Below are positions 1,540-14,106 of a DNA stretch of 17,968 nt, piece after piece; the first letter of the stretch is position 1, and each line of letters begins with the position of its first letter. The notes under the pieces were generated by a model. It made no database searches, had not been told where the DNA came from, and saw only the letters and a program-made list of their open reading frames with translations. Position numbers and translations under genes: made by a program. The stretch lies in the IMG/VR virus record IMGVR_UViG_2872185964_000004; one strand, written 5' to 3'. Source of the stretch: a virus. Lineage: Duplodnaviria > Heunggongvirae > Uroviricota > Caudoviricetes.

Positions 1540-2035
1540 GCAAATTGACTACACCATTAACTACACCGTTCGGTGCACCGTATGAAACAACGTGGAACAA
1601 ATAGACACAAGAAATATACAGGCGGATCATCTTTCCAGGGGAAGCGCACCAATTCATGAGGGGCGTTAATGTCTATATGGGGATCCCCACCTACCGGAAT
1701 TTTTTTCCGGTTAAACGTTAATCAGGCTGGTGGGCTTTACCTGTTCGGTAGGTGTTATGATTATCGTAATACCTTTCCCCAATGGGGTAAAAGCATCAAC
1801 CGTAACGAAAGTCGTTATGGTTGCCACTGATACCCCAAATTTGGGTATCACGAGTAAGCCCCAAAATCTGGGTGTTACTCTTACTACCCAAACTACGGGT
1901 AGTTTCCGTAGTTTCATGGTCGAGTTGCAGATCTGCAACTCCCCCATTAACCACAGGCGAATTTCCGCCTTCGGTCATTCCTTAATCATCTGCGTAATCA
2001 TAATGATTATTCAGCAAGCGCAATTTTGCGCTTTG
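1540..2035. other. Palindrome-dense non-coding tract between phoQ and the packaging operon (candidate att/pac/ori or structured RNA region)
   Basis: Direct repeats ACTACACC (1548-1555, 1560-1567). Perfect or near-perfect dyads: CGGTGCACCG 1571-1580, TGGGGATCCCCA 1678-1689, CCGGAA-ttttt-TTCCGG 1694-1710, TAACGA-aag-TCGTTA 1803-1817, CCCAAATTTGGG 1834-1845, AAACTACGG-7nt-CCGTAGTTT 1890-1914, GAGTTGCAGATCTGCAACTC 1922-1941, AGGCG-6nt-CGCCT 1955-1970, TAATCAT-a-ATGATTA 1995-2009, AAGCGCAA-tt-TTGCGCTT 2016-2033. The ORFs in the track here overlap each other on both strands and look non-coding. Confidence 0.6.
1584..1613 (+). repeat. Three 10-bp-phased GAACAA-type repeats (site A); shares the 15-mer AACAACGTGGAACAA with site B
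   Basis: GAAACAAcgt / GGAACAAata / GACACAAgaa at an exact 10-bp period; 1586-1600 is identical to 9045-9059. Confidence 0.55.
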
Positions 2036-2195
2036 CTTAAAGTTCAGCGAGTTACCGCGCCGACTTCCTCAAATTGAGGTTTCCGAAAATATCAGCGGGT
2101 TAGCGATTAAGCTGACCATTAATTAAACTGCGAAAATGTCGTAGTTGTGAGGGGTGTAGCCAACCCATTTTTGGGCCGTCGGGAATATCAACCAG

Positions 2196-2477
2196 TTACC
2201 GCCGCAACCGCTCCGGCTTCTTCCAGTGGTACGTTATTTTCTCCTTCTCCCGATACATCTCCACGCGGCGACGGTAGGCCAGCAACTCAAGAACTCTGGT
2301 TCGTATGTTGCGCATATCCACGCCATTAAGTTCTATACCATCACGGCGCATCACCTCAGCAACAACACGCGCATAGTTTTCGGCTGTCACGCTGTCCGGC
2401 TGCGTGGCCTGTTCGTCAGCCTGCTGGCTGATTCCGGCAACGCGGCGGATTAATCCCGTTATTTCGGCTTCTGTCAT
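2196..2477 (-). CDS. Hypothetical protein (93 aa), last gene of the head/packaging operon
   Basis: ATG at 2477 preceded by TGAGGT Shine-Dalgarno; starts 11 nt after the TerL stop; no recognisable motifs. Confidence 0.5.
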   Translation of the reverse strand: MTEAEITGLIRRVAGISQQADEQATQPDSVTAENYARVVAEVMRRDGIELNGVDMRNIRTRVLELLAYRRRVEMYREKEKITYHWKKPERLRR

Positions 2478-2490
2478 GCTGCTGACCTCA

Positions 2491-4152
2491 TTACACCCCG
2501 CTAAATTCTTCCAGTTTCTGGCGGTGGCTGTCGCTTATATCAAAAGCAAAATCCTCATGCTCTGCCTGGAATGTACCAAACGCCATCAGCGCCGCCACGC
2601 TCGGGTCTATCTTGTTCGGTGATTTTTTCTTGTTCGGCTTGATATTGGCGTTCGCGTCACTCTGCATCACGACGTTACTCATCGACCAGGACAACACCGG
2701 ATCGCCACGATGCACAATCACCCTGCGGTTAACAAAAACTTCGAACGATTTCGCCGCCGGACTGAATCTGAGGTAGGTTTGCGGGAACGGCTCCACCTCA
2801 AAACCTGCCCCCTGTAATTGCGTTCTGAGATGCGTGGCGTTCCACGTATCAAAGCCCACCAGCCTGATATTAAATTTCTCCGCGTCCTGCATGATGTCAT
2901 CTCTGATCCGGTCGTAATCAATGCAGTCGCCAGGCGTTGTGCGTATCCAGCCTGCTTTAGCCCACTGACGATAGATGGCGCGGTTTTTATTGGCGGGGTT
3001 CTGTAGCTGGAACTCCGGCAGATAATGACGGGAAACCAGCATAATGGTTTTACCTACCGGAAAGGCATAGCACACGCTGGAAATATCGCTTGTGGATGAT
3101 AAATCCAGCCCCGCGTAACACTCCTGGCCGTGTAAATCTTCCTCCGTGAACGTTCCGGCACACTCAGCCCATGCGCCGTTACCCATCCACGGGGTAGTCC
3201 CCTGACACCAGATATTAAATCGCTTTGTCATCATCTCCACCCACTGCGACGGAATACCCCGCGCTTTCTGGATGGTTGAGGCCAGTTTTTCACGATCCAC
3301 GGAAACATCAATATTAGGGTTCGCTTTTATCCACATCGCCGGATCATCAACCTCGTTTTCGTCGTCCAGTTCGTAAATCAGTACAAAAATTGAATCGTTG
3401 ACCTCTTCGCCGTCCAGGATCTGGCAGCAATAATCATAGTGCTGCTTACAGGCTGAAACGACGTTACTGCCTGATGTGGTAATGGCAAATAACAGCCCTT
3501 CGGGACGTGCGCCCATCCCCAGCTCAAGCGCGGAATAAACGCCGTTATCGGGGTGTAGGTGGTATTCGTCCACGATGGAAAGGCTGGGGTTTGTTCCCTC
3601 GATGGTTGCCGCTTTTGCTGCCAGCGGCTTTAACAGGCTGTTGCTTTTCGGGTGTATCACCTTATGCGCCTGAATATTCACCCGCCTGCGTAACGGTCGG
3701 GATAAAAGGCACATCTGACGCGCATCATCAAAGACGATCCGCGCCTGGTCACGGCTCACCGCTGCGGTGTAAATATCCTGCTGACCGTTCTCCATAATCA
3801 GAAACCAGTTAGCCAGAATCGCGGCGGTCGTGGATTTCGCATTTTTGCGCGGCACTTCGATAAAGGCGCTCGTGTATTTGCGCCGTCCGGTGGCCTTAAC
3901 CTTAAAGCCGAGGATGCACGCAAAGGCGAACTGCTGCCACGGCTCCAGCTCAATGGGTCTGCCACGCATCGGTCCTTTTACGTGCGGGCACACCCTGGAA
4001 AAGGCAATAAACCGCTCCACAACCTCACGATCGAACGTGTAAAGGGGGCTTTTAAGATCCGAAAAGTACCGTTTAACGGCCTGTTTCAGCCGTTTACAGG
4101 CCGGAATTTTGCCCGTTTTTACGTCTTCTGCGTACTTATTCCAGGCGGTCAA
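2491..4152 (-). CDS. terL: Terminase large subunit (Terminase_1-type ATPase/nuclease)
   Basis: 553-aa ORF; Walker A-like VPRKNAKST; typical TerL length. Apparent TTG start at 4152 with AAGAGGA Shine-Dalgarno, overlapping the TerS 3' end by 17 nt. Confidence 0.9.
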   Translation of the reverse strand: MTAWNKYAEDVKTGKIPACKRLKQAVKRYFSDLKSPLYTFDREVVERFIAFSRVCPHVKGPMRGRPIELEPWQQFAFACILGFKVKATGRRKYTSAFIEVPRKNAKSTTAAILANWFLIMENGQQDIYTAAVSRDQARIVFDDARQMCLLSRPLRRRVNIQAHKVIHPKSNSLLKPLAAKAATIEGTNPSLSIVDEYHLHPDNGVYSALELGMGARPEGLLFAITTSGSNVVSACKQHYDYCCQILDGEEVNDSIFVLIYELDDENEVDDPAMWIKANPNIDVSVDREKLASTIQKARGIPSQWVEMMTKRFNIWCQGTTPWMGNGAWAECAGTFTEEDLHGQECYAGLDLSSTSDISSVCYAFPVGKTIMLVSRHYLPEFQLQNPANKNRAIYRQWAKAGWIRTTPGDCIDYDRIRDDIMQDAEKFNIRLVGFDTWNATHLRTQLQGAGFEVEPFPQTYLRFSPAAKSFEVFVNRRVIVHRGDPVLSWSMSNVVMQSDANANIKPNKKKSPNKIDPSVAALMAFGTFQAEHEDFAFDISDSHRQKLEEFSGV

Positions 4153-4492
4153 GCTCGTCCTCTTCTTCTGTTTCCGGTGGATTTTTACGGCGGCTTACCG
4201 GGTCAAAACCGAGCAAGGAGGCCATTTTTATCATCACTCTTTCAGCGTCGGATTTTGCGCTTAATGCGGGGTTTCTGCTCTCGCCGCCCTGACTGTTAAC
4301 AATGCTGAACCCGCGCGCCGCAAGGTCTGCGACGGCTTTGCGGTATATCGAGTAATTGACGCAATACAGTTCCAGATTGCTCCAGTCGGCGGGGGTCAGG
4401 TCTCCCCGTTCCGCAAGCTGCCGCGATTTTTCCCGCCACTGCTTCACGGCGATGTCATCCAGGTAGGCGGGGGCTTTCGGTGGTCTTGCCAT
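4136..4492 (-). CDS. terS: Terminase small subunit (P27-family-like)
   Basis: 118-aa ORF directly upstream of and overlapping terL; N-terminal basic region and acidic C-terminal tail (ETEEEDELDRLE) typical of small terminases; ATG at 4492. Confidence 0.78.
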   Translation of the reverse strand: MARPPKAPAYLDDIAVKQWREKSRQLAERGDLTPADWSNLELYCVNYSIYRKAVADLAARGFSIVNSQGGESRNPALSAKSDAERVMIKMASLLGFDPVSRRKNPPETEEEDELDRLE

Positions 4493-4613
4493 GCTTATTT
4501 TTCGTCAGATTATTTTTCAAAAAATTCCCGTGCATAAAAATTTGAGGAGGCGTTCGGTGCCCGGCGGGGTCGGGTTTGTCCTGAAAACGCCCCCACCCCG
4601 TCATACAGCCTCA

Positions 4614-4787
4614 TCAGCGATTGCGGAAACATTCCATAACCTCGCGGTCACGGTCGGTTAATCGCTTCGCTGTGATGCGTTCTGCGCGTCCTGACGCTTT
4701 ATCTTTATGCCCTGTTTCCTGTGTCTTCCATGCGTCACGCTGCCTTATAAGTCCACGGATAAGGCGGTTTTGTTCCCGCTCATTCAT
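4614..4787 (-). CDS. Putative small basic protein (57 aa) in the HNH-terS interval; uncertain
   Basis: ATG at 4787 overlaps the HNH stop by 4 nt (ATGAATGA). Product MNEREQNRLIRGLIRQRDAWKTQETGHKDKASGRAERITAKRLTDRDREVMECFRNR. The longer 134-aa ORF in the track overlaps HNH and is rejected. Confidence 0.25.
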   Translation of the reverse strand: MNEREQNRLIRGLIRQRDAWKTQETGHKDKASGRAERITAKRLTDRDREVMECFRNR

Positions 4788-5220
4788 CAGCGTCATACAT
4801 CCAGTTATTGCGGTTAGCGGCCCGTTCTTCCTCTTCACGAAATCCACCTGCGGCACGCTTGCTTTTTGTTGCCGGATCAAGCCACTTCGTTTTCTGGTTA
4901 TGACACGCCTGGCACAATGGCTGATGGTTCCATTCGGGCCAGAAGAGAACATCATCACCGCCATTAATCGGGATAATGTGATCCACCACCACGGCGGGCG
5001 TATATATCCCCTTCTCAAGGCATCGCACGCATAACGGGTTTTTACTCAGATACATGGCGCGGTATTTTTCCCACTGTCTGGAGTACCCACGCGCGCGGCG
5101 GTGTCCTCGTCTGGCATCCTCTGCACGCCATGCCGCCCGCCTGTGCTCCTCACACTTGCCGGACTTAACGCGCCTGTTACAGCCTGGTTCTGTACATCGT
5201 CTTAATGGTTGCCACGGCAT
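4780..5220 (-). CDS. HNH endonuclease (terminase-associated, HK97 gp74-like position)
   Basis: 146 aa; Cys-rich zinc-finger-like N-terminus (CTEPGCNRRVKSGKCEEH) and HNH core (VVDHIIPINGGDD...WNHQPLCQACHNQKT); sits directly upstream of terS as in cos-type HK97-like phages. Confidence 0.9.
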   Translation of the reverse strand: MPWQPLRRCTEPGCNRRVKSGKCEEHRRAAWRAEDARRGHRRARGYSRQWEKYRAMYLSKNPLCVRCLEKGIYTPAVVVDHIIPINGGDDVLFWPEWNHQPLCQACHNQKTKWLDPATKSKRAAGGFREEEERAANRNNWMYDADE

Positions 5221-5516
5221 CAGTACACCCCCACATCACGGTAAGCCGTCCAGAGCGCGCCAATCGTCATGGGTACGCGCGTTTTTGCGTTATCCACTAC
5301 CAGCTGGCGATTCTCGTACAGGTGAGCGATAAACATCATGCAGCCAATCTTTATGGCTGGCGTGAACTCCAGCCCGTCATCAAAGCGCCTGCCTATATGT
5401 ATCTGGCACGCCTCAAGCGATGCGGCAATGTATCCGCTGATTAACTGGTCTTCCTCGTCGCCATCGATGCGGCAATGGAGTTTCACTTCTTCCAGGGTGA
5501 TAAGTTCTTCTGTCAT
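5220..5516 (-). CDS. Head-tail connector / DNA-packaging protein (gp6-like, Phage_connect_1-type)
   Basis: 98 aa; N-terminal signature LITLEEVKLHCRIDGDEEDQLISGYIAAS typical of gp6-like connectors; its ATG overlaps the upstream stop (ATGA at 5513-5516). Confidence 0.72.
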   Translation of the reverse strand: MTEELITLEEVKLHCRIDGDEEDQLISGYIAASLEACQIHIGRRFDDGLEFTPAIKIGCMMFIAHLYENRQLVVDNAKTRVPMTIGALWTAYRDVGVY

Positions 5517-5851
5517 TTTTCCGCGCCCTCACGACAAAGAATTTCAAGGCGTGTCCTGGCGGCATCCGGCAGCGGTTGCCCGATGATATTCAGTACACGC
5601 CCCGCCAGCGGCCCCGTATTGACCTTTATCCGGCTGGTGGCGTTGATGTCCTTCCGGTACCGTATCCAGATCCTTACGGTACCAATCGCCAGCTCTGCAC
5701 CCGATGAAATGGCCTCCTTGCTGCTGATCATGTTCACGCTTGCCCAGAGTGTGTGACCGTCCTCCCACGTTTCGAGTATTTCGCCGGTTATATCCCTGGT
5801 CTGTTTCAGGGTCTGAATCGTTACCCTGTCACGCAGTCGCCCTATGTTCAT
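5513..5851 (-). CDS. Head-closure / head-tail adaptor protein
   Basis: 112 aa starting MNIGRLRDRVTIQ (head-closure family N-terminal signature); its ATG overlaps the portal stop (ATGA at 5848-5851). Confidence 0.72.
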   Translation of the reverse strand: MNIGRLRDRVTIQTLKQTRDITGEILETWEDGHTLWASVNMISSKEAISSGAELAIGTVRIWIRYRKDINATSRIKVNTGPLAGRVLNIIGQPLPDAARTRLEILCREGAEK

Positions 5852-7059
5852 TCCGGCTTTTCTCCCTCGCTGATTTTTACTTCCTGTTTCCATGCCTGGC
5901 TGAACTCATCACCACCATCACGCGGGGACAGCCCTTCACGTTCGCGGGCTTCGTTCGGGCACATAACGCCGGATTTGATGCCGCGTTCATAGGTGGCAAA
6001 GCGTTCGCCAGGTGTGGCCCGTAACAGGTCCGCGCTGTCAAACTCCACCTGATACCGGATACCAGGTACAGGTGAGGCCACCAGCAGGGCGTTTTTTATC
6101 TGCTGCTCAAAGTTCGCCAGCCACGGGCGCATCGTCATGGTGAGAAATGCGCGGCTTGCCTCGCTGAAATTGCTGTAGGTGCTGTTGCTGTATTCCTGCA
6201 GAAAAATCGGCGAGACGTTGAACATTCGGGCGATGTCTTCAATGGTGAAGCGACGGGAGGCCAGCCATTCAGCATCCTGATTACTCATGCCCAGCTGCTG
6301 ATAGCTCATACCCCCTTCAAGGATGGGCGTTTTTCCGGCGTTTCTGGCCCCTTTGTAGCGTTCCAGTGCGGCTAATGCCTGTTTGCCCTTCACGCCGTCC
6401 AGCCATTCGCCTGACGTGATAACCCCTGCCGCCATCATGCCATCACGCATCACGCTCGCGCCGTGGCGCTGTTGGGCCAGCCCAAGCCCCAGCGATTCTC
6501 GGCAGATGGTTACAGGTGAGCGCCCCATAAAACCGTCATCCGTGGAGTAACGAAGGTGGAGAACCTCCCACGGTAAATAGTTGCGGGTGTTTCCGGTGTA
6601 GGCGTCAGTGATGCAGTAGCGCCAGTTATGCTCACCTGTCTGCTCAACGTTCACCGACTGCGGCGGGTAAGGATGCAAAGCGACCGGAAAACCATCACGC
6701 CCCCACTGAATCACCGCATAAGCATTACCGTTTAACAGGCAGTGGCGGATCATCATTCGCTTAAACTGGTAGGGGGTTTGCCATGCGTTCGGGCGCTCGT
6801 TGAGGATGTGATCGACCGGATGAGAATCAAGCCACTCGCGGGCCTCCTTCCCCTTCTCATTGCGTACCAGGTACAGGTAACACGGCATGGTAGCCACCGC
6901 CTCAGAGATGACCGTCACGGCATTCATGACGGCGGGCAGTGATTCCGCTGTCCCCGATGATACGTACTCACCCGCCCCCGTGTTCGATGTGCCAGCCAGC
7001 GCCATAAACTCATCAAGCGTCATGCTGCGCTGCTCTTTTTTTCTTCTGAAAGGCCACAT
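5848..7059 (-). CDS. Portal protein (HK97-family)
   Basis: 403 aa, typical portal size and composition; ATG at 7059 lies 1 nt after the protease stop. Confidence 0.88.
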   Translation of the reverse strand: MWPFRRKKEQRSMTLDEFMALAGTSNTGAGEYVSSGTAESLPAVMNAVTVISEAVATMPCYLYLVRNEKGKEAREWLDSHPVDHILNERPNAWQTPYQFKRMMIRHCLLNGNAYAVIQWGRDGFPVALHPYPPQSVNVEQTGEHNWRYCITDAYTGNTRNYLPWEVLHLRYSTDDGFMGRSPVTICRESLGLGLAQQRHGASVMRDGMMAAGVITSGEWLDGVKGKQALAALERYKGARNAGKTPILEGGMSYQQLGMSNQDAEWLASRRFTIEDIARMFNVSPIFLQEYSNSTYSNFSEASRAFLTMTMRPWLANFEQQIKNALLVASPVPGIRYQVEFDSADLLRATPGERFATYERGIKSGVMCPNEAREREGLSPRDGGDEFSQAWKQEVKISEGEKPE

Positions 7060-7060
7060 A

Positions 7061-7519
7061 TCACACCCCCGCTAAATCCGCCCACCAGCGGCGATTATCC
7101 GCACGCGGCATTTTTTCGGGGTGCTGCTCATACAGGGAACGGCGGGCCAGCTCCACGTCGGAATCAGGGTAAGCCGGTACGGATGTAACGGTAATTTCGT
7201 ACAGTTCCGCCACCAGCACGGTGCGCACGCATGGATCTGTTGTGGTATCCCATACATCCTTACGGGAACGAAAGCCAAAGCTCATGCCGGATATATCACC
7301 TCGTTTAACCAGTTCGATAACGTCGCGCCCTGTACTGGTATCCGGTGGGGTCAGTTCAAAGCGTAACCCTGTTTCGTCCTCTTCCAGTTTCAGCGTGCCG
7401 GAACGGGTGCGCCCCAGTAACATGCTGTGGTCATGCTCATACAGGCCGCGAACGTCATTACCCGCCGCAAGCCATTCAGTAAACGCCCCCCGCTGGAATT
7501 TTTCGTAAAACTCACCCAT
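7061..7519 (-). CDS. Prohead protease (HK97 family, S78 peptidase); N-terminus apparently displaced into another frame
   Basis: 152-aa ORF with protease core motifs (GEFYEKFQRGAF, HDHSMLLGRT, GTLKLEEDETGL, SFGF). The expected N-terminus (MKSMEIRSSEITTSGAGTLTGYIVCWDKLSELL) is encoded in a different frame at 7520-7617. Confidence 0.85.
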   Translation of the reverse strand: MGEFYEKFQRGAFTEWLAAGNDVRGLYEHDHSMLLGRTRSGTLKLEEDETGLRFELTPPDTSTGRDVIELVKRGDISGMSFGFRSRKDVWDTTTDPCVRTVLVAELYEITVTSVPAYPDSDVELARRSLYEQHPEKMPRADNRRWWADLAGV

Positions 7520-7641
7520 AACAGTTCTGAAAGCTTATCCCAGCAAACAATGTAGCCCGTCAGCGTACCGGCTCCGCTGGTGGTGATTTCCGATGACCGG
7601 ATTTCCATACTCTTCATAATTTTTTCACCCATAAAACACTA

Positions 7642-7661
7642 AAGGGGCTTTTAAGCCCCTT
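7642..7661 (-). terminator. Stem-loop between the major capsid and protease genes (possible attenuator or mRNA stabiliser)
   Basis: On the minus strand: AAGGGGCTT-AA-AAGCCCCTT followed by TTTAGTGTTTTAT, in the 39-nt gap after the capsid stop. Confidence 0.35.
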
Positions 7662-7671
7662 CTGTATGCTG

Positions 7672-8829
7672 TTAATCGTCGTCCTGTGGCAGTTCCAGAA
7701 TCTTGATCGCGTTCGAATCCACCACGCCACCGCCTAAATATTTCTGCGCGAAAATTTTGATGAAGCCCGGCTCTGTGAGGTTGTCCGGTCTGGTGCGAAC
7801 ACCTGTTTCGTGATCAACAATGTAGTAACCGCGTTTGAAGTCACCCAGGGCAATAACGTTATCCGGCATAAACTCCAGATATTCGACCGGAAGGCCCAGC
7901 AACGTATCAGGATCACCCGCCTGTAAACGGTCACGCCAGATGTAATCACCGTTCGCGTTCTTCACCTTCTGGAGTTTTGCCGCCGTCGTGGAGTTAACCA
8001 CCCAGACCGCGTTTTTGCGGTATTTTTTACGTAATGCAAATTTCAGGTCGATCAGCGGGTCCGCAGATGTCCACGCCAGAGATTCGGAAGGTTTAATTAC
8101 CTGCAACGTACCAAAATCACGCTCTTTGTCGTTCTTCTCTGCACGGGGTACGGATAAAAAGCCTTTTGCTTTTTTGTCACCGTCGCCCACAACCAGATCG
8201 CTTTCTTCGGTTTCCGTGAAGGTGTCGCCAATCTCGCCCGTCAGCCATGAAAGGATGTCCACATCGGAAAAATCCACAATTTCCTGCGTGGTGCGCGGGT
8301 ACGCATAGACCGGATACAGCTTAATGCTCACCTCGTTAATCTGCGGGGTGCTGGTCTGTTCGCGTGCCTTACCCTCTTCACCGTGGTTAACGGTCGCACC
8401 GCCAGCGGAAACAAGCTGCTTAAACTCGTTGCTGCTGATTTTCTTCACGGTACAGATGCGGCGCATGGTGGATTCATCCGTCAGCATTCGCATGATTTCG
8501 GTGTTCAGTTCGGGGATAACGGTATAACCACCATCAGCGGGAACGCCTGTACTCAATGCGCGGGTTTCACCTGTCAGAATGTAGTGACGTAGTTCGGCGG
8601 GGTCAGTGGTCTGGCTGTTTTTGCCTGGTTTACTGCGCTCTTCGTCAGCAACGGCCTCAAGGCGGGAGATGTCTTTATCGAGTGATTCAGCTTTAGCGCG
8701 TAATTCGTCAAATTTTGCGCCCTCAGCATCGTTAAGGCTGCGGTTTTCTTTTTCCGCGTTCTCCAGCATGTCGCGCATCTGATTTTTAATGGCGGTTTTC
8801 TGCTGGCGTAATTCGATTATTCTCGGCAT
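7672..8829 (-). CDS. Major capsid protein (HK97 fold) with N-terminal coiled-coil delta/scaffold-like domain
   Basis: 385 aa from the ATG at 8829 (MPRIIELRQQKTAIKNQMRDM...); charged helical N-terminal ~100 aa followed by a capsid-like body; the track ORF begins 16 codons earlier at a non-ATG start. Confidence 0.88.
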   Translation of the reverse strand: MPRIIELRQQKTAIKNQMRDMLENAEKENRSLNDAEGAKFDELRAKAESLDKDISRLEAVADEERSKPGKNSQTTDPAELRHYILTGETRALSTGVPADGGYTVIPELNTEIMRMLTDESTMRRICTVKKISSNEFKQLVSAGGATVNHGEEGKAREQTSTPQINEVSIKLYPVYAYPRTTQEIVDFSDVDILSWLTGEIGDTFTETEESDLVVGDGDKKAKGFLSVPRAEKNDKERDFGTLQVIKPSESLAWTSADPLIDLKFALRKKYRKNAVWVVNSTTAAKLQKVKNANGDYIWRDRLQAGDPDTLLGLPVEYLEFMPDNVIALGDFKRGYYIVDHETGVRTRPDNLTEPGFIKIFAQKYLGGGVVDSNAIKILELPQDDD

Positions 8830-9040
8830 AAAAAAAGTCCTGAAGTTAAGTAAGGAACTCCAGGACGCGGCAAACACTCAACCGTTTTTCATAAGGAAAT
8901 CAGCAATCGCACCGATCGTTTTCCCGCCTGGTAATGAATATTGGCGAGCACATTAACAGGCGGGAAAGTGGCCCCAGCGTCCTGGCACCACGGGCGAGAA
9001 TAATCATGATTCAGTTCGGGTAAAATATGCCGATCCGGTC

Positions 9041-9070
9041 AGCGAACAACGTGGAACAACCACGAACAAA
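9041..9070 (+). repeat. Three 10-bp-phased GAACAA repeats (site B) in the promoter region of the head operon
   Basis: GAACAA at 9044-9049, 9054-9059 and 9064-9069; 15-mer AACAACGTGGAACAA at 9045-9059 is identical to site A; lies between the terminator and the capsid gene. Confidence 0.55.
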
Positions 9071-9086
9071 TAATTTACAAAACATG

Positions 9087-9109
9087 ACAAAAAGCCGGAT
9101 TGCTCCGGC
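9087..9109 (-). terminator. Rho-independent terminator closing the replication/early operon
   Basis: On the minus strand: GCCGGA-GCAA-TCCGGC (perfect 6-bp stem, GNRA-like loop) immediately followed by TTTTTGT. Confidence 0.65.
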
Positions 9110-9116
9110 TGTGTGA

Positions 9117-10388: not shown

Positions 10389-10576
10389 CTCACTTTTTCG
10401 CCTCACTTTTTCAAGCGTCTCACTTCGTCGCAGTTGGGATTTTCGGTTTTTCTATGTGTGTGTTTCATAAGTATTTTTTTACCCCTCACTTTTGAGGATG
10501 TATACAGGTCGAAAAGTGAGGGGAGCGGGCTAATTTTGGCCCTCTTTCTACCCCCTCGCTTTTGCTCCTCACTTTT
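10389..10576. repeat. Iteron cluster (CTCACTTTT) with an embedded 12-bp inverted repeat; putative replication origin
   Basis: CTCACTTTT or variants at 10389-10397, 10402-10410, 10419-10426, 10485-10493, 10555-10563, 10568-10576. Inverted pair CCCCTCACTTTT (10482-10493) / AAAAGTGAGGGG (10512-10523) with an 18-bp spacer. Sits immediately 3' of the RepA-like ATPase gene. Confidence 0.5.
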
Positions 10577-11558
10577 ATAGCGGCGCTACATCATCCCCAT
10601 CGATACGAATAACCCCATCTTTTTCCAGCTTGTACAGCCAGCGCCGGAAGTTTTTCATTTCATACCCCAGCTTTTTCATGTCATCACGTAACAGCTGGAT
10701 CGTGCACTTGTCGCCGTTCTGTGTGCGTGAACGGATGCACCCCCATAGCGCGGTATGGTTTTCCGTCTTGTTCCCTGCCTCCTCTATGCGCTCCAGTTCA
10801 ACAGGAGGGCGCGGATCATCCACCACCACCAGCGACGTGATTAATTCACCGTCAGCGTCGGTAAAAAGCTCCACCACGCGTAAGTCATATGCGGCTTCTT
10901 TGAGTTCCTCCGCGTCCTTCATTTTGGTGCATGAGATAACCAGCGCTTCGCTTCCTGCGTCCTCCCTGCGTATCCGGTATTCAGCATCCAGCGAAGCACG
11001 AAATGCACTGGAGCCGCGCGCGCCTTTCGTCTCATCCTTGCCGGAATGGTGAACCACCAGCACCGTGGCCCCTGTGCGTCGTTTCAGTTCGTCACAACCA
11101 CGGATAAACGCCCCCATATCACGGGAATCATTTTCATCATTCCCACCAAAGCAACGCGCCAGCGTATCCAGAATAATCATGCGTACAGGTTTACCCGTTT
11201 CCCGCTCCACCTGACGGGCAGCGATAACCATTTCATCAACATCAAGCGGGGCAGCCGGAAAGATGGGGCGGTTTACCAGATACAGATTTTTCACCTGCTC
11301 ATCGTGCACAACCTCCCAGGCTTTTACACGACGCGGAACACCTATACCGCCTTCACCAACCACATAGAGAACCGCACCATGTGCAACCCTGCGGCCTCCC
11401 CACTGGCGACCAGTGGCAACATGGCACGCCCACGATCCGGCAAGGAATGATTTATAGGACCCGCTAGCCCCGTATATGCTGCATAGCGATACCGCCGGAA
11501 TAATCCCCTTAACCACGTAATCCAGTTGCGTGTCGTATCCGGTAGATCCAACGCTCAT
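10575..11558 (-). CDS. AAA_25 / RepA-like RecA-fold ATPase (replication helicase-like protein)
   Basis: P-loop GASGSYKS, Walker B IILDTL, and the HHSGK...RGSSAF motif characteristic of RepA/DnaB-like ATPases. Start placed at ATG 11558, which overlaps the upstream stop (ATGA at 11555-11558); an in-frame ATG at 11660 is the alternative. Confidence 0.75.
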   Translation of the reverse strand: MSVGSTGYDTQLDYVVKGIIPAVSLCSIYGASGSYKSFLAGSWACHVATGRQWGGRRVAHGAVLYVVGEGGIGVPRRVKAWEVVHDEQVKNLYLVNRPIFPAAPLDVDEMVIAARQVERETGKPVRMIILDTLARCFGGNDENDSRDMGAFIRGCDELKRRTGATVLVVHHSGKDETKGARGSSAFRASLDAEYRIRREDAGSEALVISCTKMKDAEELKEAAYDLRVVELFTDADGELITSLVVVDDPRPPVELERIEEAGNKTENHTALWGCIRSRTQNGDKCTIQLLRDDMKKLGYEMKNFRRWLYKLEKDGVIRIDGDDVAPL

Positions 11559-11974
11559 CGGTAGCGTGGTTTTTCGCTGGTGGTTTTTTTCTTCCACCGG
11601 CTCTTTCCCGCGCACCCGTTCCAGGTATTCGCGCCAGTTCTCCCGCATATGGCTGTGCATCCCTTCGGGTAATAATTCGCATCAGTTACACCCGCCGCCG
11701 CCAGCTTGTGCGCAATGGCATTAATATTTGATGGCCTGATGTGGCCTGCCTTGTACAGCCGGACACAATAGCGCCCCTCGTCGATGATTCTCAGGTCTGC
11801 CAGTTCATCCAGTTGATCATCAGCCAGCACAACGGGAGGCACATTATCGCCAGCCAGTCGCCCGTCCTGTTCCTGCCACTGTTTCGCATGTGCCCAGGCA
11901 TCACTACCCGCAAAAATAATGACTTCGGTCATCTTGTCGTAAGGCTGTTTTTTTAAGTTCGGTGCGCTTTTCAT
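11555..11974 (-). CDS. Hypothetical protein (139 aa), co-translated with the ATPase
   Basis: ATG at 11974 overlapping the upstream stop (ATGA at 11971-11974); no confident motif. Confidence 0.5.
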   Translation of the reverse strand: MKSAPNLKKQPYDKMTEVIIFAGSDAWAHAKQWQEQDGRLAGDNVPPVVLADDQLDELADLRIIDEGRYCVRLYKAGHIRPSNINAIAHKLAAAGVTDANYYPKGCTAICGRTGANTWNGCAGKSRWKKKTTSEKPRYR

Positions 11975-12585: not shown

Positions 12586-13329
12586 GGTGATGCTGCCAAC
12601 TTACTGATTTAGTGTATGATGGTGTTTTTGAGGTGCTCCAGTGGCTTCTGTTTCTATCAGCTGTCCCTCCTGTTCAGCTACTGACGGGGTGGTGCGTAAC
12701 GGCAAAAGCACTGCCGGACATCAGCGCTATCTCTGCTCTCACTGCCGTAAAACATGGCAACTGCAGTTCACTTACACCGCTTCTCAACCCGGTACGCACC
12801 AGAAAATTATTGATATGGCCATGAATGGCGTTGGATGCCGGGCAACTGCACGCATTATGGGCGTTAGCCTCAACACGATTTTACGTCACTTAAAAAACTC
12901 AGGCCGCAGTCGGTAACCTCGCGCATACAGCCGGGCAGTGACGTCATCGTCTGCGCGGAAATGGACGAACAGTGGGGATACGTCGGGGCTAAATCGCGCC
13001 AGCGCTGGCTGTTTTACGCGTATGACAGGCTCCGGAAGACGGTTGTTGCGCACGTATTCGGTGAACGCACTATGGCGACGCTGGGGCGTCTTATGAGCTT
13101 GCTGTCACCCTTTGACGTGGTGATATGGATGACGGATGGCTGGCCACTGTATGAATCCCGCCTGAAGGGAAAGCTGCACGTAATCAGCAAGCGATATACG
13201 CAGCGAATTGAGCGGCATAACCTGAATCTGAGGCAGCACCTGGCACGGCTGGGACGGAAGTCGCTGTCGTTCTCAAAATCGGTGGAGCTGCATGACAAAG
13301 TCATCGGGCATTATCTGAACATAAAACAC
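12586..13329 (+). mobile_element. IS1 copy 1 (744 bp, lacks the right terminal inverted repeat)
   Basis: Begins with the IS1 left inverted repeat GGTGATGCTGCCAACTTACTGAT; contains insA, the A6C frameshift motif (12892-12898) and the insB frame; ends at ...AACATAAAACAC and is directly abutted by copy 2. Confidence 0.93.
12641..12916 (+). CDS. insA: IS1 InsA (copy 1)
   Basis: 91-aa product [22 protein letters not shown]...[11 protein letters not shown] start. Confidence 0.93.
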
Positions 13330-13356
13330 GGTAATGCTGCCAACTTACTGATTTAG
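12868..13356 (+). CDS. insB: IS1 insB reading frame (copy 1), expressed as the InsAB' transposase by -1 frameshift
   Basis: insB frame with transposase motifs. An in-frame TAG at 12865-12867 lies upstream of the frameshift site, so the fusion is unaffected. The C-terminus is altered (...[12 protein letters not shown]) because the frame runs into copy 2. Confidence 0.8.
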
Positions 13357-13384
13357 TGTATGATGGTGATTTTAAGGTGCTTGC

Positions 13385-13660
13385 GTGGCTTCCATTTCCA
13401 TCAGATGTCCTTCCTGCTCCGCTACTGAAGGCGTGGTGCGTAACGGCAAAAGCACTGCCGGACATCAGCGCTATCTCTGCTCTCATTGCCGTAAAACATG
13501 GCAACTACAGTTCACTTACACCGCCTCTCAGCCCGGTACGCACCAGAAAATCATTGATATGGCCATGAATGGCGTCGGATGTCGCGCCAGTGCACGCATT
13601 ATGGGCGTTGGCCTCAACACGGTTTTACGTCACTTAAAAAACTCAGGCCGCAGTCGGTAA
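13385..13660 (+). CDS. insA: IS1 InsA (copy 2)
   Basis: 91-aa product [22 protein letters not shown]...; A6C frameshift motif at 13636-13642. Confidence 0.93.
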
Positions 13661-14082
13661 CCTCGCGCATACAACCGGGCAGTGATGTGATTGTCTGCGC
13701 TGAAATGGACGAACAGTGGGGCTACGTCGGTGCTAAATCACGTCAGCGCTGGCTGTTTTACGCGTATGACAGGATACGGAGGAGGGTTGTGGCGCACGTC
13801 TTCGGTGAACGCACTCTGGCCACACTGGAGCGTCTTCTGAGCCTGCTGTCGGCCTTTGAGGTCGTGGTATGGATGACGGATGGCTGGCCGCTGTATGAAT
13901 CACGCCTGAAGGGAAAGCTGCACGTTATCAGCAAGCGTTACACTCAGCGCATTGAGCGACATAATCTGAATCTGAGACAACATCTGGCAAGGCTGGGACG
14001 GAAGTCACTGTCGTTCTCAAAATCGGTGGAGCTGCATGACAAGGTCATCGGGCATTATCTGAACATAAAACACTATCAGTAA
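13579..14082 (+). CDS. insB: IS1 InsB (copy 2)
   Basis: 167-aa ORF ending ...HYLNIKHYQ, the canonical InsB C-terminus. Confidence 0.9.
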
Positions 14083-14097
14083 GTTGGAGTCATTACC

Positions 14098-14106
14098 GAT
14101 ATTCAG
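14098..14106. repeat. 9-bp target-site duplication GATATTCAG (right copy)
   Basis: Matches 12577-12585 exactly. Confidence 0.85.

Follow-up and report, generated by a model that had tools for sequence, protein, structure and literature searches.

We analysed a stretch of Caudoviricetes DNA of 17,968 nucleotides (IMG/VR record IMGVR_UViG_2872185964_000004; hereafter the window), in which a block of head and packaging genes runs from 8829 to 2196 on the minus strand. This block very probably belongs to a capsid-forming phage-inducible chromosomal island (cf-PICI) of the EcCIEDL933 type, lying between phoQ and roxA, and forms its morphogenesis and packaging module. The block encodes the capsid, protease, portal, head closure protein (Hc1), head-tail adaptor (Ad1), an HNH endonuclease and the small and large terminase subunits (TerS and TerL). 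The order capsid-protease-portal-Hc1-Ad1-HNH-(orf60)-cos-terS-terL-orf93, where cos is the cohesive-end site and orf60 and orf93 are small conserved open reading frames (ORFs), is inherited within the proteobacterial cf-PICI lineage and fixed in it. Because the window shows the features by which cf-PICIs are recognized in published work, organisation included, this order is already known, as a published hallmark of the family. It matters little in itself, being the signature of a well-studied group of satellites; the practical gain is a correct annotation, as a cf-PICI and not as a rearranged or mis-assembled prophage.

A probable cf-PICI between phoQ and roxA

The features used for recognition come from the cfPICI model of SatelliteFinder and from a recent study of the family (10.1101/2025.02.11.637232). 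The model comprises 11 core components, forbids tails and holins and describes the organisation as very conserved; cfPICIs occur in 13% of Enterobacteriaceae genomes (PMC10085698). The gene order of the window type itself serves as a search criterion for cf-PICIs (10.1101/2025.02.11.637232). All 11 core components are present in the window (integrase, AlpA regulator, primase/replicase, capsid, prohead protease, portal, adaptor, connector, HNH, TerS and TerL), two of them, the protease and repA, in a frameshifted copy. They follow the proteobacterial organisation, with capsid, protease, portal and head connectors and then hnh-terS-terL. The island is about 16.5 kb long including about 1.5 kb of IS1, inside the 10-18 kb of the family, and has attachment (att) repeats. 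In the island ORFs scanned we found neither a tail module nor holin or lysis genes. Tail and lysis families are likewise missing from the Pfam list of the source contig; the scan used Pfam and PHROGs and took in the island ORFs one by one, save a few small ones between 14600 and 15700.

The following features mark out the island around the head block:

1 to 1461: phoQ, the first feature of the window
1548 to 1568, no strand: att repeat of 21 bp, ACTACACCATTAACTACACCG, the phoQ-side end of the island
16191 to 16379: AlpA (PF05930)
16739 to 17968: tyrosine integrase, running to the end of the window

The same 21-mer stands at both ends of the 15.4-kb island of O157:H7 F6321 (locus L002, positions 3548 and 18902), and the int-side repeat of the present island falls just outside the window. 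Upstream of the capsid gene, in transcript order, we find the integrase, AlpA, small ORFs, DUF4222, a RepA-type AAA_25 helicase, SSB and a PerC-family regulator. EcCIEDL933, from strain EDL933, is 15.4 kb long and has int, alpA and rep as in classical PICIs, together with capsid, protease, portal, head-tail connectors, HNH, TerS and TerL, and has no tail genes (10.1101/2022.09.08.507074). Helper-dependent induction through AlpA, small T=4 capsids and transfer with hijacked tails are experimental findings for EcCIEDL933 (10.1101/2025.02.11.637232, 10.1101/2022.09.08.507074).

The capsid protein provides a link to this prototype. Over 385 residues it is about 99% identical to PDB entry 9gyi ("Major head protein"), about 5 of the 385 residues differing. 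The entry was deposited with four chains, which agrees with the four-subunit asymmetric unit of the T=4 EcCIEDL933 capsid (10.1101/2025.02.11.637232). Next after 9gyi among solved structures come capsid proteins of the gene transfer agent from Rhodobacter capsulatus (6tb9 and 6tba; E about 4e-47 for both), rather than HK97.

The island could also be read as a decayed HK97-like prophage that has lost its tail and lysis genes and is no satellite, which we regard as very unlikely. Such decay would account for the frameshifts in the protease and repA and for the two IS1 copies, and the head genes do all belong to HK97-type families. However, hundreds of genomes carry the same 15.4-kb plan undamaged, lacking tail genes and including int, alpA and replication genes of PICI type; it is found at several att sites, and a relative is packaged as a 16.5-kb unit. 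The capsid is at most 37% identical to that of any phage in the collection, other small elements of this type excepted, and the prototype is, by experiment, a helper-dependent satellite (10.1101/2022.09.08.507074). A complete HK97-like prophage does not fit the island either: its gene order is another one, and none of the scanned ORFs matches a tail or lysis family.

Genes of the head and packaging block

The long ORFs between 2196 and 8877 are all co-oriented on the minus strand. Their identities were assigned by Pfam and PHROGs profile searches, that of the capsid also by the PDB match:

8829 to 7672, minus strand: major capsid protein, 385 aa, HK97 fold (PF05065, E 1e-61)
7632 to 7061, minus strand: HK97-family prohead protease, frameshifted (PF04586)
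7059 to 5848, minus strand: portal (PF04860, E 9e-91; phrog_12)
5851 to 5513, minus strand: head closure Hc1, gp7-like, 112 aa from the ATG at 5851 (PF05521; phrog_25)
5516 to 5220, minus strand: head-tail adaptor Ad1, gp6-like (PF05135; phrog_40)
5220 to 4780, minus strand: HNH endonuclease, the packaging cofactor of HNH-dependent cos terminases (PF01844; phrog_144, E 9e-45)
4796 to 4614, minus strand: conserved 60-aa ORF (orf60), overlapping the HNH stop by 17 nt (phrog_3173, E 7.5e-37)
4492 to 4136, minus strand: TerS, 118 aa, P27 family (PF05119, E 4e-24; phrog_83)
4152 to 2491, minus strand: TerL, 553 aa, TTG start (PF03354 and PF20441; phrog_9, E 2e-179)
2477 to 2196, minus strand: orf93, 93 aa, conserved after terL (phrog_1561, E 3e-56; hypothetical in relatives)

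A preliminary description, made from the sequence alone, had recognized the eight genes from capsid to TerL as co-oriented and in permuted order. Pfam, PHROGs and the PDB match bear out all eight identities, and the genes, co-oriented as described, follow one another on the minus strand from 8829 to 2196. That gene list was right in what it named and overlooked orf60 and the frameshift in the protease. The 60-aa ORF is annotated in relatives and has 40-45% identity in Klebsiella-type and Erwinia elements; either it or orf93 probably makes up the ninth member of the "9-gene packaging module" (10.1101/2025.02.11.637232).

Every gene overlap quoted in that description is present in the sequence, namely ATGA at 5851-5848 and at 5516-5513, TGATG at 5222-5218 (Ad1/HNH) and the 17-nt overlap of terS and terL at 4152-4136; the gap between protease and portal is 1 nt. 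These junctions couple translation from portal through HNH, and of terS with terL. The reading of the block as one operon holds in part. The spacing is tight, and a simple scan predicts no sigma-70-like promoter on the coding strand inside the block, which fits one transcription unit, but the coupling is not seamless, being broken by a 39-nt gap with a hairpin after the capsid gene and by a 121-nt gap at 4613-4493.

Beyond orf93, a segment between the att repeat and that gene (1741-2193) does not align to the O157:H7 island at the same site. It aligns at 98.6% to a tqsA-inserted island of E. coli strain 8479, and has no annotated gene and no Rfam match.

The order is fixed among relatives

The 6.7-kb block gives a single colinear alignment, at up to 98.7% identity and at least 80% query coverage, in 404 complete E. 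coli genomes, and partial matches are found in 1,450 of 5,426. When one genome per species was scanned, close relatives turned up in Shigella flexneri and in Rosenbergiella, Citrobacter, Erwinia and Gilliamella. Two entries in the phage collection, vB_KppS-Ant at 16.5 kb and Pasteurella Pmp8 at 15.3 kb, are elements of this kind too. The order capsid-protease-portal-Hc1-Ad1-HNH-TerS-TerL is common to elements from eight genera. Among IMG/VR relatives with 64-99% capsid identity, none of the 80 loci shows a deviating order: 51 have the full order, 18 have one or both neck proteins too divergent for tblastn, and in 11 just the beginning of the order is seen, the most plausible reason being that the contig stops there. 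An order that is identical in 404 genomes, in eight genera and across all 80 IMG/VR loci is far beyond chance or assembly error.

The preliminary description had itself named two circumstances that could undo its reading, mis-assembly or inversion, and misidentification of the capsid or portal gene. Both are rejected on conservation, profile and PDB evidence. We see practically no chance of an assembly error or local inversion in the source genome: CP026872.1, a 4.71-Mb chromosome of assembly GCA_002950295.1, matches the window at 100% identity, the block aligns colinearly at 98.7% to many independent complete genomes, and all genes lie on one strand, which an inversion would not give. Misidentification of capsid or portal is ruled out by the strong Pfam and PHROGs matches together with the PDB match.

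More distant loci are organised differently. Where the capsid is at most 35% identical (Yersinia phage YeP1, three Bacillota metagenome-assembled genomes (MAGs) and Rhodovulum), the order is TerL-portal-(protease)-capsid-Ad1-Hc1; this canonical order is seen in loci L012, L013, L015 and L017 as well as in YeP1. The HK97 record reads terS, terL, portal, protease, major capsid protein, a putative terminator, Ad1, Hc1 and tail genes; HNH lies some 320 nt short of its right end. Hence the difference from HK97-like phages that had been noted earlier is borne out by both HK97 and YeP1, and the synteny comparison with HK97-like phages and cf-PICIs that had been proposed along with it finds the cf-PICI order shared and the HK97 order different. 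The order is non-canonical against HK97, as had been said, but it is no unexplained oddity, since it is the published cf-PICI organisation.

In two uncultured Bartonella MAGs (L014 and L016, 30% capsid identity) there is a third arrangement, portal-capsid-HNH, which terS-terL follow some 2 kb further downstream; these loci may represent an intermediate stage or else a separate small element.

The probable cos site and what is truly reordered

The spacer between orf60 and terS is the largest gap listed above, and a packaged relative points to its role:

4493 to 4613, minus strand: intergenic region, probable cos, as judged from the packaged relative

LR881103.1 (vB_KppS-Ant, locus L003) is a linear 16.5-kb record from induced particles. 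Its left end lies 22 nt before terS, and its right end follows the small ORF after HNH, at the motif ...GGGGTGGGGGAGGTTTTCAGGAC, which coincides with a G-rich motif of the window, GACGGGGTGGGGGCGTTTTCAGGAC (4602-4578). Since these termini fall between the small ORF and terS, cos is most likely within 4493-4613, a position that the sequence comparison locates to the spacer and not to the base. The G-rich motif is shared with the Klebsiella-type element and partly with Pasteurella Pmp8, and 4578-4602 is a candidate cos cleavage region. In LR881103.1, a 765-aa gene (2036-4333) stands straight after terL, where the window has only orf93; the record annotates it as a putative tail length tape measure protein.

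Reading the island from cos changes the picture of the gene order. The map then runs terS-terL-orf93-att/int-alpA-replication-perC-leader-capsid-protease-portal-Hc1-Ad1-HNH-orf60. The earlier statement that the terminases come last is true of the integrated map but is partly an effect of setting that map against the virion map of HK97, as the HNH-(cos)-terS-terL junction is canonical; it is the normal junction of HNH-dependent cos phages, exactly as in HK97. What is truly reordered is the head genes only, with capsid-protease-portal in place of portal-protease-capsid and Hc1-Ad1 in place of Ad1-Hc1. Between terL and these genes lie att/int and the replication module, and the genes are placed upstream of HNH. 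They occupy the place of the lambdoid late promoter-proximal genes, in reversed relative order. Two sub-blocks reversed without inverted genes can be produced neither by a single inversion nor by circular permutation, and the reordering points to several rearrangements or to modular assembly.

Transcription signals and a structured capsid leader

Three elements on the coding strand bear on how the block could be expressed:

7641 to 7662, minus strand: terminator-like hairpin just after the capsid stop, with a GC-rich stem of 9 bp, a 4-nt loop and a T-rich tail
8830 to 9092, minus strand: conserved structured leader of the capsid gene, defined by cross-genus alignment, consensus fold and covariation
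9093 to 9110, minus strand: intrinsic-terminator-like hairpin (z = -4.4) that closes the upstream rep-ssb-perC unit

The hairpin right after the capsid gene, which the preliminary description had reported, is indeed present (7662-7641). Of 52 distinct spacers between capsid and protease genes in relatives, 48 have an equivalent GC hairpin and T run, with stems that vary in sequence.

The region from perC to the capsid ATG, about 290 nt, is conserved across genera. It holds a box, TTTTGTAAATTATTTGT, at 9082-9066, followed about 30 nt later by a weak hairpin and T run at 9043-9029, which is strong in Klebsiella-type elements. Two stem-loops, SL1 (8991-8968) and SL2 (8967-8920), carry compensatory changes across genera. 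A third, SL3 (8866-8837), is followed by T7 (to 8830), which abuts the capsid ATG; in other lineages it is replaced by unrelated hairpins, some of which pair with the start codon itself. In a consensus fold of 17 diverse leader sequences, 96% of cells pair and 10 of 26 pairs show changes on both sides. None of 500 shuffles reached this covariation, and slid controls drop to 37-47% pairing. In all of the 110 IMG/VR loci with enough sequence, the SL1 motif in its exact Klebsiella-type form precedes a cf-PICI capsid start by 96-122 nt.

No Rfam family matches anywhere in the window at the gathering threshold, and permissive searches with the leaders of the window and of vB_KppS-Ant returned only matches far below threshold that rest on the terminator hairpin. 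A similarity of the leader to lambdoid late-promoter regions was rejected, as blastn against 50,697 phage records gave only chance-level matches of 21-28 nt. A role for PerC as activator acting on the box is weakened by the Klebsiella-type element, which has the box and leader and no perC-like ORF in its 600-nt spacer. The cf-PICI papers that we searched make no mention of promoters, terminators, antitermination or a structured leader. Candidate roles for the leader are those of a late-promoter leader, antitermination or translational control.

From these elements, and from what is known of the family, we propose how the module could work. Transcription would start in the conserved leader 5' of the capsid gene, and one late transcript would cross cos and reach terL and orf93. 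The post-capsid hairpin could act by partial termination (attenuation) or by stabilising the 3' end, and in either case capsid message would exceed that for the low-copy and catalytic proteins. By analogy with the cf-PICIs described in the literature, the module would make the satellite's own small T=4 capsid of HK97 fold, with capsid, protease and portal forming the prohead and Hc1 and Ad1 forming a neck that docks a tail taken from the helper phage. The satellite's DNA would then be cut at its own cos and packaged by HNH, TerS and TerL.

One could go further and suppose that the box, hairpin, SL1-SL3 and post-capsid hairpin form a cf-PICI-specific cis-acting RNA cascade of attenuation and antitermination, switched on by a satellite or helper factor, in which the dosing of capsid against portal and terminase would depend functionally on having the capsid gene first. 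We think this improbable as a whole: the structure is supported by covariation, whereas the regulatory role and the link to gene order are guesswork. The structured leader and its possible link to dosing of the block are nevertheless the only element here with some potential, and the leader and post-capsid hairpin provide handles for testing why the head genes are reversed and how the block is transcribed.

Why the head genes are reversed

Two accounts of the order address why it exists, and neither competes with the identity of the element. In the first, the order is a frozen historical accident of the modular assembly of the proteobacterial cf-PICI ancestor, without selective meaning, in which tight translational coupling makes change costly. 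We give this account a little less than an even chance. The order is invariant across relatives with only 59-75% capsid identity, and the independently arisen Firmicutes cf-PICIs differ in order (10.1101/2022.09.08.507074). The best phage matches also differ from gene to gene (Pseudomonas VW-6S, YeP1 and ST64B for the capsid; Brucella BiPBO1 and phi105 for TerL), which is compatible with a mosaic origin. Selection, however, predicts strict conservation equally, and reversing two sub-blocks without inverting genes takes several events, which speaks against pure chance.

In the second account the capsid-first order is an adaptation that, together with the post-capsid hairpin, sets a transcriptional gradient matching the stoichiometry of the particle. 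The preliminary description had suggested that capsid-first placement plus the hairpin would favour a high ratio of capsid to portal and terminase. This idea is plausible, and it is reasonable because the order tracks falling copy number per T=4 particle, from capsid through protease, portal and neck to the packaging enzymes. It is also in keeping with the retention of the hairpin with varied stems in most spacers, and with the TTG start of terL and its overlap with terS. As the explanation of the order we nonetheless consider adaptation possible but doubtful. HK97 has a putative terminator after its capsid gene, gp5, and yet keeps the canonical order; the hairpin would thus be older than the reordering, does not explain it and is not specific to capsid-first elements. 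Firmicutes cf-PICIs use other orders (10.1101/2022.09.08.507074), and the hairpin is absent from four relatives. Selection on an expression gradient and a frozen arrangement are not mutually exclusive.

State of this copy

The copy of the cf-PICI in the window has diverged from its relatives. Alignment with the O157:H7 island (L002) places a 1-nt deletion in a G run near 7519-7522 of the protease, which is an intact gene of 573 nt in relatives. The frameshift leaves an ORF of 152 aa from an internal ATG, and PF04586 matches only from profile position 30. This exact 152-aa product occurs in only two contigs of a large collection, those of the source genome CP026872.1 and of one SRA assembly. 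The repA gene (10575-11974, minus strand) is split into ORFs of 139 and 361 aa, as against a 465-aa protein in O157:H7, through a 1-nt deletion near 11669 plus a 3-nt insertion relative to L002. Two tandem IS1 copies (about 12586-14098, in the early region), 744 nt apart and 91% identical to each other, replace about 60 nt of the O157:H7 island. Because of the two frameshifts and the IS1 pair, this copy is probably defective, decaying in a lineage-specific manner; a homopolymer sequencing error may also underlie the frameshifts in protease and repA.

An island of S. flexneri SFBU1023 (L006, CP182556.1) lacks about 90 nt opposite window positions 4473-4562, including the terS start and part of the putative cos spacer. 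This deletion suggests that the same satellite is decaying independently in Shigella.

Several points weigh against the interpretation of the block as a working cf-PICI module. With its frameshifts and IS1 copies, the window copy may express or assemble nothing. Upstream of the capsid gene, a simple scan of the coding strand yields no promoter of sigma-70 type. The match of 9gyi to the EcCIEDL933 capsid is made through sequence identity and details that agree with the paper, not through the name of the record. About 75 nt of the window's spacer are left unmatched by the LR881103.1 junction, and the single operon, the attenuation and the cos site are what we infer for the window.

Comparison with known systems

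The island is closest to EcCIEDL933 and the O157:H7 island, whose 15.4 kb agree with the published length of EcCIEDL933; it shares with them the phoQ-roxA site, gene content, gene order and the int-alpA-repA-ssb-perC backbone. The packaging block of O157:H7 F6321 is 97.9% identical in DNA to that of the window. Compared with EcCIEDL933, the window differs in the frameshifts of protease and repA, in the IS1 pair, in a replication region that is only about 93% identical, and in the segment at 1741-2193.

Other proteobacterial cf-PICIs (vB_KppS-Ant/KpCIDSM30104-like, Pasteurella Pmp7/Pmp8, Citrobacter, Erwinia and Gilliamella) have the same order of the eight packaging genes and share the post-capsid hairpin and the structured capsid leader. 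They differ in having capsids of 59-75% identity, other integrases and replication genes, divergent Hc1 and Ad1, and other accessory genes after terL. The Firmicutes cf-PICIs are alike in gene content and satellite lifestyle, but their orders place either portal-protease-capsid or hnh-terS-terL first, and they are thought to be independently derived from phages (10.1101/2022.09.08.507074).

With HK97 the window shares the families of TerS (P27), TerL, portal, S78 protease, HK97-fold capsid, gp6-like and gp7-like proteins and HNH, as well as the HNH-cos-terS-terL junction across the genome ends and a terminator-like hairpin directly after the capsid gene. In HK97, however, portal-protease-capsid-Ad1-Hc1 come straight after terL, tail genes follow, and lysis genes precede HNH, whereas the window has reordered head genes upstream of HNH, no tail or lysis genes found, and a capsid with at most about 37% identity to those of true phages.

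The classical Gram-negative PICIs EcCICFT073 and EcCIED1a have int, alpA and rep modules that are shared or identical, and some att sites are shared as well (10.1101/2022.09.08.507074). They differ in carrying one or two packaging-redirection genes and using helper capsids, and they are without portal, neck proteins and TerL (10.1101/2022.09.08.507074, PMC10085698).

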